The notes beneath the pieces are model-generated. The model saw only the letters and a program-made list of their open reading frames with translations. It was not told the DNA's origin and searched no databases. A DNA stretch of 35,268 nt from a virus, in the UHGV virus genome UHGV-0140091; one strand, given 5' to 3'. Shown here piece after piece: positions 487 through 16,101 of this stretch (positions within the stretch are counted from its first letter, which is position 1; each line of letters starts with the position of its first letter). A program made the translations under genes and the position numbers.

Positions 487-562
487 TGGTAGAAGTGGAG
501 GGATTCGAACCCATCGCCTGTCAGATTAAAAGTCTGCCGCATCACCATTCTGCTACACTTCC
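487..562 (-). tRNA. tRNA-Lys (anticodon TTT), non-canonical T-stem
   Basis: Acceptor GGAAGTG/CACTTCT, anticodon loop CTTTTAA, T-loop TTCGAAT, encoded CCA. T-stem has only 3 GC pairs plus two mismatches. Confidence 0.55.
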
Positions 563-577
563 ATTAAATTATCTTTG

Positions 578-700
578 TAGATAAGCTACCCAGACTTGCT
601 TAAGGTCTGTAGCGATGTGCCTTGTTGGGTTTAAATCTAGAATTTACCCTTTCACCCTTTGTGGTCGCATACTCACAGGTAAGCTTAATAACTTATCTAC
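578..700 (-). ncRNA. candidate structured small RNA (~123 nt) closed by a long terminal helix
   Basis: Perfect 9-bp terminal pairing GUAGAUAAG (700-692) with CUUAUCUAC (586-578), extendable with a bulge (AAGCU/AGCUU). No ORF. Starts 8 nt after a GGUCUGG helix strand, the same spacing seen before two tRNAs. Confidence 0.35.
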
Positions 701-708
701 AAAGATAA

Positions 709-846
709 TTACCAGACCGTTGTTTATCATCTTAAGTGCTACCATTACACCAACTCGACATCTGCCGAGTGAAGGAATCGAACCTTCGCCTTTTCTTTAC
801 CGGAGAAATAGATTGTTTAAGTTTTGCTGTAAACGGTCTTCTGTAA
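709..846 (-). ncRNA. candidate Y RNA-like RNA with circularly permuted tRNA-like domain
   Basis: 5' strand UUACAGAAGACC (846-835) and 3' strand GGUCUGGUAA (718-709) form a bulged helix. Between them, in order: T-arm GAAGG-TTCGATT-CCTTC (787-771), acceptor 3' strand ACTCGGC (770-764), 4-nt loop, acceptor 5' strand GTCGAGT (759-753), TG, D-arm GTGT-AATGGTA-GCAC (750-736). No anticodon arm. Confidence 0.5.
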
Positions 847-853
847 ATTTGTT

Positions 854-933
854 GAGCCAGACCAAGTTTTAAATTTTCAAAATTAAATTGGCTTGAAATT
901 TCATACGTACTTGCTGTAATTGGTCTTCTGCTC
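854..933 (-). ncRNA. bulged-helix RNA module, copy b
   Basis: GAGCAGAAGACC (933-922) pairs with GGUCUGGCUC (863-854): upper helix AGACC/GGUCU, internal loop AGA vs G, lower helix GAGC/GCUC. Ends 7 nt upstream of the Y RNA-like element. Confidence 0.4.
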
Positions 934-1282: not shown

Positions 1283-1348
1283 TTGCCAGACCGTGTTTTT
1301 TCTTTTATCCGCAAAAAGTATTTTGTTGCTGAATACGGTCTTCTGCAA
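1283..1348 (-). ncRNA. bulged-helix RNA module, copy c
   Basis: UUGCAGAAGACC (1348-1337) pairs with GGUCUGGCAA (1292-1283). Lies 3 nt after the CCA of the upstream tRNA and 8 nt before the 5' end of tRNA-Asn. Confidence 0.4.
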
Positions 1349-1437: not shown

Positions 1438-1515
1438 GACCAGACCAAATCTCTTCTTTGTCCGATTTACCTTCAGATGAATAAGATTAAGTTTGCTGTA
1501 ATTGGTCTTCTGTCA
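1438..1515 (-). ncRNA. bulged-helix RNA module, copy d
   Basis: UGACAGAAGACC (1515-1504) pairs with GGUCUGGUCA (1447-1438). Lies 4 nt after the CCA of tRNA-Glu and 8 nt before the next tRNA. Confidence 0.4.
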
Positions 1516-1846: not shown

Positions 1847-3261
1847 TTACCAGATATAACGGTCAATCATTACTGCTTTGAGCATTACGCTGATTGGGTC
1901 AAACTTCTCACCACCAAGCAGAGCTTTTAAAGTGGCTGGAGAGAAACCAGACACCATTGCTACACCGTTATCCTTAACAGATACTTCGCAAGTGCCATTA
2001 CGGTTTGCTAAGTACCAGAATACCAGTTGTGGCATCTCATATCCAGCTTTTTTGTACTTGCTCTGAATTGCTTCAAAGTTTGTACGACCGTTAGCTCCAT
2101 CAACCTGATTGAACTCCATATCAGAGAAGATGATAAGCTTACTTGGCATATCTTTCTGAGTCAAGTTGTTTCTTTTACCTGTCTCAAGAATACGGTCAAA
2201 AGCTGCTTGTAAGTTAGTTGAGCCATATTCAACGTGTCGCATCACCTGACGATGACGGTTTCGTAAATCACCACTCAGTTCAATGAAGTGAGGGTTTGTT
2301 GAATAAACCATCAACTCATTCTTAAAGCAACCTGTATTACGTTCTGCTACATACAATGCAAGTGAAACACCAATATCAAGAGCAGTAATTGAACCAAAAT
2401 TCACCCAAGACATTGAACTTGAAACATCAGACATACATAGAATGTTTTCACCCTCTGCCATCCAGTTTGGTAGTGCTTTCCACTGCTCATTAGCAACATC
2501 TGCATTACCATACTTAACAGATTTAATCACATCGTATGGGTAAACAGCACCAGCATTAATCTTAGCCTCACCCTTTGATAATGACTCGATGTAAGCTTTG
2601 TAGCGTTCTCCATCTTTACGGTTAAACAGTTTTTGGTAACGTGCAGCAGCAAGTGAAGGAATCTTACTGTAGTCAATCTTACCAAACTCATTAGCAGAGA
2701 TTTTTTGCTCAACTGTATCAGATAGTGCAGACAACAGTGTGCGGTACTCTTTCTCACTCAAGTTTGCAAACTTGCAGAAACGTTTTACAAACTGTTTGTG
2801 ACGTGGTTTTACTCGTGGTAACCACTTAGCTGCTAAACCTGCTGTTGCAGGGTCTAGTAATGCTGCTTCTAAATGTTTGAAGGCATCTGTCTCGAAACGA
2901 GTACCTACAAAGATTTTGAAGTCATCAAAGCGACCAAGCTCTGCAATCTTATCCATAATGCGAAGAACCTGCGTAGGTTCTAAAACTTTATCTTCAATCG
3001 CTTGAAGTAAAACAGTTCGGAAAGCTTTACGCTCACCATACCTTCTCGTACATCTCGCATATGCAGTAAAATACGAACTGCAACATCAACATCCTCATGC
3101 AAAGCTTTGTAGAACAGGTCTGGTAAGATTTCTACATTGCTACGGCTTGAACCAGCAGCTTTGTAAAAGTCTACAAGAGCAGACATTGATGAAGTATGGT
3201 TTGCAGCACCATTTTCAGTTCGACCTGCATGAAGGTGCGCATGTTTAAATAATTCGCTCAT
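1847..3261 (-). pseudogene. vWA-domain protein with N-terminal helical domain (DUF2828-like by recollection; Ro60/TROVE-like architecture), split by a -1 frameshift
   Basis: Two ORFs (2980-3261 and 1847-2956) overlap in different frames. The downstream frame stays open upstream of its ATG to ~3130 and reads YGERKAFRTVLLQAIEDKVLEPTQVLRIMDKI. Joining ...RDVREG to YGERK... at ~3038-3042 restores one ~470-aa protein. C-terminal part has the vWA MIDAS motif DVSSS. Confidence 0.6.
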
Positions 3262-3342: not shown

Positions 3343-3714
3343 TTATTTTTTGAGAGTCGCTACAGCAGAGAACGTTGGTTTGTTATCTGTCTGAGACTGA
3401 CCACCATTATCAGGGGTCTTCTTAGTGTCTGCTGCAATCGCTTTCATCTCACCTGCTGAGTGAGTCATGATGGTTTTACCAGCCTCCATCATCGACTTCA
3501 GGTTTACATCGTCAGTCGTCAAACCGAACTCTGCAAGCTTAGCAGCATCCCTTGTAACAACCGCCTCAAACAACTTTGCAGCAAACTCAGCAGAATTATC
3601 AATGGTCAGTTGAGCTTTTACGAGTGAGCTTTTGTTACGAGAGCCTTTTGGTCTTCCAGATGGGTTTCCAGACTGGCCTTTTTTAAACTGGCCTTTGTTT
3701 GTTCTGTTTTTCAT
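3343..3714 (-). CDS. hypothetical protein with N-terminal GNPSGRPKG basic motif
   Basis: 123-aa ORF with AAGAGG ribosome-binding site upstream of the ATG. Confidence 0.6.
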   Translation of the reverse strand: MKNRTNKGQFKKGQSGNPSGRPKGSRNKSSLVKAQLTIDNSAEFAAKLFEAVVTRDAAKLAEFGLTTDDVNLKSMMEAGKTIMTHSAGEMKAIAADTKKTPDNGGQSQTDNKPTFSAVATLKK

Positions 3715-16010: not shown

Positions 16011-16101
16011 TTTTTAATCTCCTAGTTTAAGGACTGTGTAAAGCTCTTTATCTGGGGCTTAAGATATCAGCTTTTAAGCCCCTTGTAAAGTACTTTATTA
16101 C
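16011..16101 (-). repeat. conserved intergenic repeat (PeSL-like), variant 2
   Basis: Variant-2 copy with hairpin GGGGCTTAA-GATATCAGCTTT-TAAGCCCC. Confidence 0.7.

Follow-up and report, generated by a model that had tools for sequence, protein, structure and literature searches.

A small structured RNA in the tRNA and Ro/Y RNA-like operon of FelixO1-like phages, with no earlier description found

What is encoded in the spacer upstream of tRNA-Lys in the viral genome UHGV-0140091, whose two ends can pair with one another into a long helix? The spacer occupies positions 563 to 711 of a 35,268-nucleotide (nt) stretch of this genome (the window, by which we mean the whole of that stretch), within an array of transfer RNA (tRNA) genes, and an original prediction, drawn from the letters of the sequence, had seen there an element of about 123 nt, free of open reading frames (ORFs) and closed by a terminal stem typical of small stable RNAs. 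We conclude that this element, here termed E, is a small structured RNA of a phage operon of tRNAs and Ro/Y RNA-like components. That E is a conserved, structured noncoding RNA is close to certain; our analysis further indicates that it is strand specific, that it belongs to no known family, and that it resides in an operon with a Ro60-like protein, Y-like RNAs, and tRNAs. E is read from 711 to 563 on the minus strand, the strand of the array and of all tRNA genes in the window, and consists of a structured RNA of ~145 nt with a 1-nt 5′ linker and a 4-nt 3′ linker.

The observation from which the prediction started, perfect pairing of the two ends, is correct: GTAGATAAG (577-585, its first base lying one position before the start given originally, 578) and CTTATCTAC (692-700) are fully complementary. 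The helix does extend further, and the repeat is longer than had been stated, with arms of 22 nt (567-588 and 689-710) that are 95% complementary at a separation of 100 nt; a repeat search found no inverted repeat of at least 16 nt with higher complementarity anywhere in the 35-kb window. Counted as a helix, the ends form 22 to 23 base pairs (bp) between 567-589 and 688-710. The gap of 8 nt that was said to follow a GGUCUGG strand (712-718) has to be amended, in that the helix starts 1 nt after this strand and its GUAGAUAAG core 11 nt after it, and the remark that the same spacing precedes two tRNAs is apt, with two other GGUCUGG strands located 11 nt before tRNA-Met (5′ end at 1428) and tRNA-Asn (5′ end at 1274). 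For the minus-strand RNA of 565-712, the predicted folding energy is −48.3 kcal/mol (z = −5.7), a stability reached by none of 200 shuffles, and the plus-strand RNA folds about as well (z = −6.0); thermodynamics alone, therefore, cannot choose the strand of E.

Homologs of E are numerous. The window belongs to a Felixounavirus, its tRNA array being 98% identical to genomes of that genus, and the window’s version of E (type 1) is present in 196 phage records at 94 to 100% identity. A strongly divergent version (type 2), first met at the identical location in two “non-matching” Felixounaviruses, was detected in 60 records, among them members of the genera Suspvirus and Mooglevirus, that share 84 to 100% identity with one another, bringing types 1 and 2 together to about 256 phage records across the three genera. 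Types 3 to 5 and their variants were reached by way of the neighboring Ro-like protein gene in more distant phages of ~90 kb and are represented by seven metagenomic or GenBank relatives (L052, L255, L053, L258, L256, L054 [Yersinia phage P778], and L257), for a total of nine sequence-divergent versions in FelixO1-like phages. In 9 of 9 types, E is followed directly, at a distance of 0 to 16 nt, by tRNA-Lys(UUU), which in the window lies at 487..562 on the minus strand and would provide an RNase P site. The upstream neighbor varies, being either an RNA that we call RNA D, a simple hairpin RNA (module C), or tRNA-Ala with other spacer sequence. Every relative examined carries some version of E at the same site, with no presence/absence polymorphism. 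E is absent from other phages that possess the same Ro-like protein gene, four of them with a tRNA-Lys(UUU), which limits the E family to the FelixO1-like clade. A scan of IMG/VR with ATTCTAGATT...CTACAGACC returned nothing beyond this Felixounavirus element and an unrelated coding sequence with a 30-nt gap; a metagenome scan with TATGMG-N45-75-CTTWAGCAAG yielded, among the matches listed, only chance loci, none with the P5 stem and surrounding architecture described below. None of the genome records examined annotates E, some of them placing a hypothetical ORF over it, and no annotation, Rfam family, or paper found in our literature search describes it; a paper on the retron Eco2, which touches on Felixounavirus and noncoding RNA, proved to have no bearing on E.

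To compare the nine types, we built a structural alignment by hand, verifying every segmentation against the actual sequence, and counted pairs by script on this hand alignment for 54 proposed pairs. The alignment supports one common fold, predicted on the minus strand and backed by covariation, that consists of a terminal helix (P1), a four-way junction with P2, P3a/b, and P5, and two tertiary pairings (P4 and K) that create two pseudoknots. P1 (710-688 / 589-567) has 23 nt per strand, and its 3′ strand ends 4 nt before tRNA-Lys. P2 joins 677-674 (UGUG) to 663-660 (CACA). The P3 arm (617..655) is composed of P3a (655-653/619-617), P3b (649-646/630-627), and an apical loop at 645-631 (AAAUUCUAGAUUUAA) whose CUAG is kept in types 1 to 3, and the P5 hairpin (591..609) of a stem (609-605/595-591) and a 9-nt loop at 604-596 (CUUAAGCAA). 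In P4, the first pseudoknot, GCGA at 668-665 within the P2 loop pairs with UCGC at 615-612 between P3 and P5, and P2 and P4 together make a classical H-type pseudoknot in which L1 measures 5 nt in the window (3 to 6 nt across types) and L2 1 nt (0 to 2 nt). In K, the second pseudoknot, GCUUA at 684-680 in the P1/P2 junction pairs with UAAGC at 602-598 inside the P5 loop.

Of all cells of the 54 pairs, 97.5% are canonical over the 33 unique sequences, and 47 pairs have undergone changes on both sides; for the nine representatives, the figures are 95.9% and 46 pairs. Sliding the 3′ partner by 1 to 3 columns lowers these values to 33 to 42% canonical and 13 to 20 double-sided pairs, and when the 3′ letters are shuffled within columns of the representatives, canonical cells average 59.9% (maximum, 65.7%) and double-sided pairs 32 (maximum, 38). 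An earlier set of five types gave the same picture, both in pair counts and in controls. Broken down by helix among the nine representatives, canonical cells amount to 94% in P1 (double-sided changes in 21 of 23 pairs), 97% in P2 (4 of 5), 100% in P4 (4 of 4), 100% in P3a (4 of 6), 97% in P3b (5 of 5), 100% in P5 (6 of 6), and 91% in K (2 of 5).

The sequences that fill these helices differ widely. P1 in types 2 to 5 is one base pair shorter than in type 1, the pair having been removed from both strands in step. P2 is found as UGUG/CACA, AUCG/CGAU, GGGG/CCCC, GCCU/AGGC, and AGUAU/AUGCU; P4 as GCGA/UCGC, GAGU/ACUC, GCGG/CCGC, AGGG/CCCU, AGAG/CUCU, GGGU/ACCU, and GGGU/ACCC; and P5 as CAGAC/GUCUG, CAAACC/GGUUUG, CAGUC/GACUG, CUGUUC/GAACGG, AGAGAC/GUCUCU, AAAGUC/GACUUU, and CAACC/GGUUG. 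K likewise covaries (GCUUA/UAAGC, GCUAA/UUAGC, and GUUCA/UGAAC) and in L256 has undergone a coordinated 1-bp deletion on both strands (GC-AA/UU-GC). Few nucleotides outside the helices are invariant over all nine types. Minimum free energy folds of single sequences from the five type representatives recover P1 in 5 of 5 cases, P3b and P5 each in 4 of 5, P2 in part, and the pseudoknot pairings P4 and K never. The original idea of a small, structured, non-tRNA RNA with a closing terminal stem is thus upheld by homologs and by compensatory changes in the terminal helix and five internal pairings, and the stem is not a chance inverted repeat lacking conserved homologs, because homologs exist and the helices are kept by such changes.

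Several other pairings were considered and abandoned. A CUAC/GUAG pairing around P5 is impossible in type 3, whereas the extension of P1 covaries, and a GCUAA/UUAGC pairing that type 2 would allow between the junction and the 5′ strand of P3 is disrupted in Mooglevirus. The first assignment of P2, P3, and P4 in type 5 was replaced once L256 to L258 revealed a conserved GUG-UAACGUU-CAC hairpin.

The strand of E, left undecided by folding energy, is indicated by the alignment, whose helices contain 87 G·U cells versus 6 A·C cells; only the minus-strand RNA can thus form all helices in full, a result that fixes the strand and excludes a palindrome at the DNA level. As for coding, the description “ORF-free” does not hold in the literal sense, as mechanically called ORFs of 85 amino acids (plus strand), 28 amino acids (plus strand), and 33 amino acids (minus strand) overlap E. 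The longest (615-872, plus strand) is annotated in some records but is absent or truncated over E in types 2 to 4, so that E lacks the conserved ORF expected of a protein-coding sequence.

Does E belong to a known RNA family? The Rfam scan that had been proposed as a check detected no ribozyme, riboswitch, or other family of Rfam 15 over 563-711, either at gathering score or at an E value of ≤10, and covariance models of Y RNA and YrlA had no match at an E value of ≤10 within 200-1800. In context and outline, E most resembles the Y RNAs (YrlA/YrlB of Salmonella, Yrn1 of Deinococcus, and Yrl1/Yrl2 of Thermus phage phiLo), which also are found in small-RNA clusters beside a gene for a Ro60-fold protein (PMC4201824, PMC12135203). 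The Ro60-fold gene here is 1.1 kb upstream of E on the same strand, its likeness being structural only, and both kinds of RNA are about 100 to 150 nt long with a long stem made by the 5′ and 3′ ends, E at 144 nt being slightly above the classical range of 80 to 130 nt and closing with a helix of 22 to 23 bp. However, where the Y RNAs have a large loop, the interior of E is a compact double-pseudoknot core, and the phage protein, a DUF2828/DUF7788 protein, is Ro60-like by fold only; its binding to E is hypothetical. Ro binds Y RNAs at bulged-helix motifs (GGUCCGA / GNCGAAN0-1G / CGAA; PMC4201824, PMC12135203). Because neither the Ro-binding motif nor a covariance-model match was found, E is not filed as a Y RNA.

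The Class I RNAs of Dictyostelium (RF01414) are characterized by a 5′ AAG, a short terminal stem, an 11-nt motif (CCUUACAGCAA) beside the 5′ stem strand, and a 3′ CUG(U). E has neither the AAG/CUG ends nor a match to RF01414 and does not show this arrangement; a partial likeness is confined to the P5 loop, (C)CUUAAGCAA in types 1, 3, and 4, which equals the motif minus one C. This loop changes with its partner K in other lineages (CUUGAACAA, CUUGCAC, and CCUAUGCAA), and the resemblance is probably incidental because loop and K change together in L256 to L258, for which reason a reading of P5 as a miniature Class I module was dropped. E is similar to tRNAs in that a terminal helix closes a four-way junction, that tertiary contacts involve loops in the first and the last arm, and that it resides in a tRNA array. 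It differs from them in a terminal helix of 22 to 23 bp in place of a 7-bp acceptor and in the lack of D/T loop motifs and of a 7-nt anticodon loop; in agreement with the original statement that E has no T-loop and is not a tRNA, ARAGORN and the Rfam tRNA and tRNA-Sec models are negative at 563-711. A candidate amber-suppressor anticodon loop in P3 (UUCUAGA) was rejected, as type 3 has A at “U33” and types 4 and 5 have other loops.

Two further precedents bear on how such an RNA might be made. The tRNA cluster of phage T4 contains stable non-tRNA RNAs, “species 1 and 2” (rnaC and rnaD), that are matured from shared precursors. E is likewise a small non-tRNA RNA inside a phage tRNA cluster, the phage family being unrelated and the likeness one of description only, and we know of no Ro60-like gene next to rnaC/rnaD in T4. 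In addition, RNase P can form 3′ ends at a downstream tRNA or tRNA-like structure (the MALAT1/mascRNA principle), and ribosomal RNAs are excised via RNase III stems. E fits this principle to the extent that a structured RNA is followed by a tRNA within 0 to 16 nt and that its flanks pair as a two-turn helix, which would make its processing comparable, whereas the organisms and functions are unlike those of E.

The gene that heads the array (1847..3261, minus strand, just upstream of the promoter region) encodes a protein with DUF2828 and DUF7788 domains by Pfam and falls into PHROG 850 (“RNA-binding protein”). An AlphaFold (AF2) model of an intact homolog (predicted local distance difference test score, 86), when compared with the PDB by Foldseek, had as its top 10 matches exclusively Ro60/Rsr/TROVE proteins, all over the full length, with E values of 2e-8 to 1e-6 and template modeling scores of 0.5 to 0.64; a sequence-profile search of PDB sequences with the Ro60-like protein gave no match. 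The first gene of the operon is thus predicted, by structure only, to encode a protein of the Ro60 fold, which lends support to the “Y RNA-like” label that had been given to the neighbor of E. This assignment is in line with a preprint that describes Bas63 gp130 as Ro60-like, encoded upstream of the tRNAs, and active against the “ppl” defense system, and whose authors guessed that some of the Bas63 “tRNAs” are Y RNAs (PMC11482910); our literature search on DUF2828/PF11443 turned up nothing useful. In the window, a G run near 3037, inside the most conserved motif of the gene (RDVRxGxGE), has lost 1 nt (GGG to GG), which splits the gene into ORFs of 93 and 369 amino acids. Relatives have an intact protein of 471 amino acids. 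The frameshift is either a sequencing error or the sign of a pseudogene. A small DUF5681 gene (3343-3714, minus strand) always precedes the Ro60-like gene, and the order DUF5681, DUF2828, RNA array is kept in the distant relatives (L052 to L054 and L255 to L258); the DUF5681 gene may be a further component of the system.

ARAGORN and Rfam place tRNA-Ile, tRNA-Met, and tRNA-Lys at 329-562 and tRNA-Asp, -Tyr, -Asn, -Met, -Glu, and -Pro at 1017-1681, all on the minus strand. Two sigma-70-like promoter matches (1828-1800 and 1737-1708, minus strand) are situated upstream of tRNA-Pro; they are consensus matches, the total count of which is not above shuffle expectation. No promoter-like site was detected beside E on the minus strand, such sites occurring only upstream of tRNA-Pro, nor any terminator-like site on the minus strand inside the array. 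Having no promoter-like site of its own, E is probably transcribed as part of a polycistron.

We see about even chances that the full explanation is a stable noncoding RNA that is cut from a tRNA/Y-RNA-like polycistron and has a protein-binding or decoy role. A more detailed sketch of excision, ends, shielding, and binding core can be offered only tentatively. E would be excised from the polycistron as a stable RNA, its 3′ end made by RNase P at tRNA-Lys and its 5′ end by maturation of the preceding Class-I/Y-like RNA and/or by RNase III within the two-turn P1; P1 would then shield the excised RNA against exonucleases. Acting in trans, the pseudoknotted core would offer a surface for specific binding. 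E could then serve the phage Ro60-like ribonucleoprotein as an accessory RNA, or it could be a decoy or protector associated with tRNA-Lys(UUU), which host anticodon nucleases frequently target. Bolder, and rather doubtful in our estimation, is the proposal that E is the first representative of a novel class of phage RNAs, compact, double-pseudoknotted, and endowed with a biochemical activity of their own, whether as a specific inhibitor or decoy of a host defense factor that targets RNA (tied to tRNA-Lys(UUU) or to the Ro60-like ribonucleoprotein that counters “ppl” in Bas63) or as a new ribozyme, and is one of several hidden noncoding RNA genes in the tRNA array.

A number of observations weigh against the interpretation of E as a structured RNA of a Ro60-like operon. 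On the side of structure, L258 breaks 3 of the 5 K pairs, isolated P2 mismatches occur in L042, L049 to L051, and L257, the independent lineages number perhaps five or six and not 33, and the pair percentages are biased toward the model because the alignment was built by hand to fit it. With respect to expression, we infer transcription, ends, stability, and processing by RNase P and RNase III, and no transcriptome for these phages was found in the literature. With respect to a partnership with Ro, P1 in every type is an almost perfect helix whose sequence, unrelated and covarying, offers no Ro-binding motif, and the Ro-like gene is frameshifted in the window while E is intact. Moreover, the Ro-like gene and the Class-I-like RNAs described below are far more widespread than E, which is limited to the FelixO1-like clade, and the data therefore do not demand that E have a role in the Ro system.

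Among other explanations, the decoy function could be the whole story: E might bind or mislead a host factor that attacks tRNA-Lys, such as an anticodon nuclease of the PrrC, RloC, or PARIS type, acting as a decoy or protector of tRNA-Lys(UUU), or might control the maturation of the phage tRNA-Lys. Amid rearrangement of the rest of the array, E has remained joined to tRNA-Lys(UUU) in 9 of 9 lineages, and its architecture is cloverleaf-like, with a four-way junction, a terminal helix, and loop-mediated tertiary contacts; furthermore, tRNA-Lys(UUU) is targeted by defense nucleases, with phage tRNA-Lys as a countermeasure (Burman 2024, cited in PMC12916289). We nevertheless consider this reading unlikely. 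No arm resembles an anticodon or T arm and no signal of mimicry was seen, the sequence of the 9-nt P5 loop is explained by K, the P5 stem does not track the anticodon stem of tRNA-Lys, and the linkage itself may be a frozen accident of 3′-end formation by RNase P.

E could also be purely a processing cassette, in which P1 serves as an RNase III site between the Y-like RNAs and tRNA-Lys and the inner 100 nt are mere spacer. Approximately two helical turns are the minimal RNase III substrate, and P1, with 22 to 23 bp, has the roughly 20 bp or more of nearly uninterrupted double-stranded RNA needed (0 to 1 mismatch in types 1 to 3 and 1 to 3 mismatches or short internal loops in types 4 and 5). 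Its length is kept in most types despite sequence turnover, the loss of a base pair affecting both strands in step, and E is embedded in a multi-RNA transcript that needs cutting. What makes this account quite unlikely is that structural selection on the interior matches that on P1 in strength, with P2 to P5 and K 91 to 100% canonical and subject to compensatory changes, whereas a spacer would not retain two pseudoknots; cutting by RNase III may occur in addition.

We judge it very unlikely that E belongs to a new class of self-cleaving ribozymes or ligand-sensing RNAs through which the tRNA operon is processed or regulated. A compact fold with two pseudoknots and a few invariant nucleotides is typical of such RNAs, and small ribozymes are known beside phage tRNAs, but the Rfam search gave no ribozyme or riboswitch match, an HDV-like topology was rejected on its strand order (P1, P2, P3 hairpin, P1′, P4, P2′), invariant unpaired nucleotides are very few over the nine types, and a following tRNA leaves no place for an expression platform. 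That E is a degenerate tRNA or tRNA-derived pseudogene, a filler, is suggested by its site in a tRNA array, by the four-way junction, and by tRNA pseudogenes annotated nearby in some records, yet this view is largely refuted and highly improbable given the negative tRNA searches, a 22-bp “acceptor,” the missing T/D loop motifs, and a compensatory evolution that denotes active selection rather than decay. A DNA-level element (a palindrome or cruciform protein site, a recombination or homing site, or an insertion resembling a miniature inverted-repeat transposable element), which the long, nearly perfect inverted repeat and the homing endonuclease genes inserted in this array in some relatives might bring to mind, is likewise largely refuted, its probability close to negligible in view of the G·U over A·C excess on helices complete on one RNA strand, the covarying pseudoknot pairings, the lack of presence/absence polymorphism among the relatives examined, and the lack of target-site duplications.

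Four further RNAs, in the other spacers of the array, share a frame of CAGAAG, a stem strand, UUACAGCAA, a variable part, the complementary stem strand, and CUGG, and all are on the minus strand. RNA D (712..843), just upstream of E, has a Class-I-like stem (CAGAAGACC...GGUCUGG) around a permuted tRNA-like domain; module C (857..930), recognized by sequence and motif analysis, is a Class-I-like hairpin RNA that is invariant in relatives; and modules B (1286..1345) and A (1440..1512) each lie 11 nt upstream of a tRNA, tRNA-Asn and tRNA-Met, respectively. Only modules A and B matched RF01414, with 19.7 and 24 bits, respectively, both below the gathering score of 41.5. The RF01414 consensus, GaUcuCCUUACAGCAA...GagAuCUG, and the published hallmarks of Class I RNAs (an AAG start, a covarying 6-bp stem, an 11-nt motif, and a CUGU end; PMC7919456) correspond exactly to the features of the phage spacer RNAs. 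In the Dictyostelium Class I RNAs as in the four spacer RNAs, a 5′ AAG is followed by a covarying stem of 5 to 8 bp, (C)UUACAGCAA, and a variable region, with CUG(U) at the 3′ end.

The domain within RNA D runs from a T arm (GAAGGUUCGAUUCCUUC) through a loop-closed acceptor stem to a D arm, which is the permuted order of YrlA; it has a weak match to the Rfam tRNA model at 770-820 and no match to the Rfam YrlA or Y RNA models. Its closed acceptor stem covaries between Felixounavirus, Suspvirus, and Mooglevirus, and similar tRNA-like inserts occur in unrelated phages with a DUF2828 gene.

In 75 diverse IMG/VR loci (L060 to L134), selected solely for having a DUF2828 gene, the strict form of the motif is found 41 times (33 loci) on the strand of that gene versus 2 times on the opposite strand, frequently directly after the stop codon, with freely covarying stems and at times a tRNA-like insert. 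This distribution makes it likely that the Class-I-like RNAs, and not E, are the universal partners of the Ro60-like protein. Class I RNAs have been reported as unique to Dictyostelia, the social amoebae (PMC7919456), our literature search for a link between Class I RNA and Ro60 gave nothing useful, and the association of Class-I-like RNAs with DUF2828 proteins appears to be undescribed. In one relative (L053, 8251-8395), the outer terminal helix of E has a Class-I-like 5′ strand, CAAAG-AAUCU-UUCAGCAU, with a matching 3′ strand, AGAUU-CCCUG, hinting that E may have arisen as the variable domain of a Class-I-like RNA; this outer helix was not seen in L256 and L258.

FelixO1-type phages are classic diagnostic and therapy phages. 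Their “tRNA region,” annotated merely as tRNAs and spurious small ORFs, has at least one spacer that, in all probability, encodes a conserved RNA of complex fold, and the whole region looks like a Ro60-like protein/Y-RNA-like operon. There are now concrete RNA candidates for the partners guessed in the PhageMaP study of the counter-defense factor Bas63 gp130. The Class I signature in phage RNAs suggests a testable link between the Dictyostelium Class I family and the Ro60-like DUF2828 proteins, and this association may be a more far-reaching lead than E.

Other features of the array and the window deserve mention. Between tRNA-Lys(UUU) and the next tRNA-Met, where the window has 4 nt (483-486), some relatives contain an insertion of ~78 nt (L003 1684-1761 [KhF3], L052 5091-5168, and several Mooglevirus genomes), which in L052 folds into a long hairpin. 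A G+C-rich hairpin at ~964-986, between tRNA-Asp and module C, reads GAGAGGGCUAUUUAGCCCCUC on the minus strand, followed by palindromic CUUUAAAG..., and is almost invariant in six aligned Felixounavirus-type genomes (the window, EC6, I14.1, SP4, pSJ21, and fKMPT1). HNH homing-endonuclease genes lie between array tRNAs in some relatives (pSJ21, L007 2014-2442, between tRNA-Asp and tRNA-Tyr; L005 1-48), showing that mobile elements target this array. Elsewhere in the window, two nearly identical hairpins with 24-nt arms, at 16039-16097 and 17648-17706 and 1.6 kb apart (TAAAGCTCTTTATCTGGGGCTTAA / TTAAGCCCC.TGTAAAGTACTTTA), may be repeated terminators or regulatory sites.

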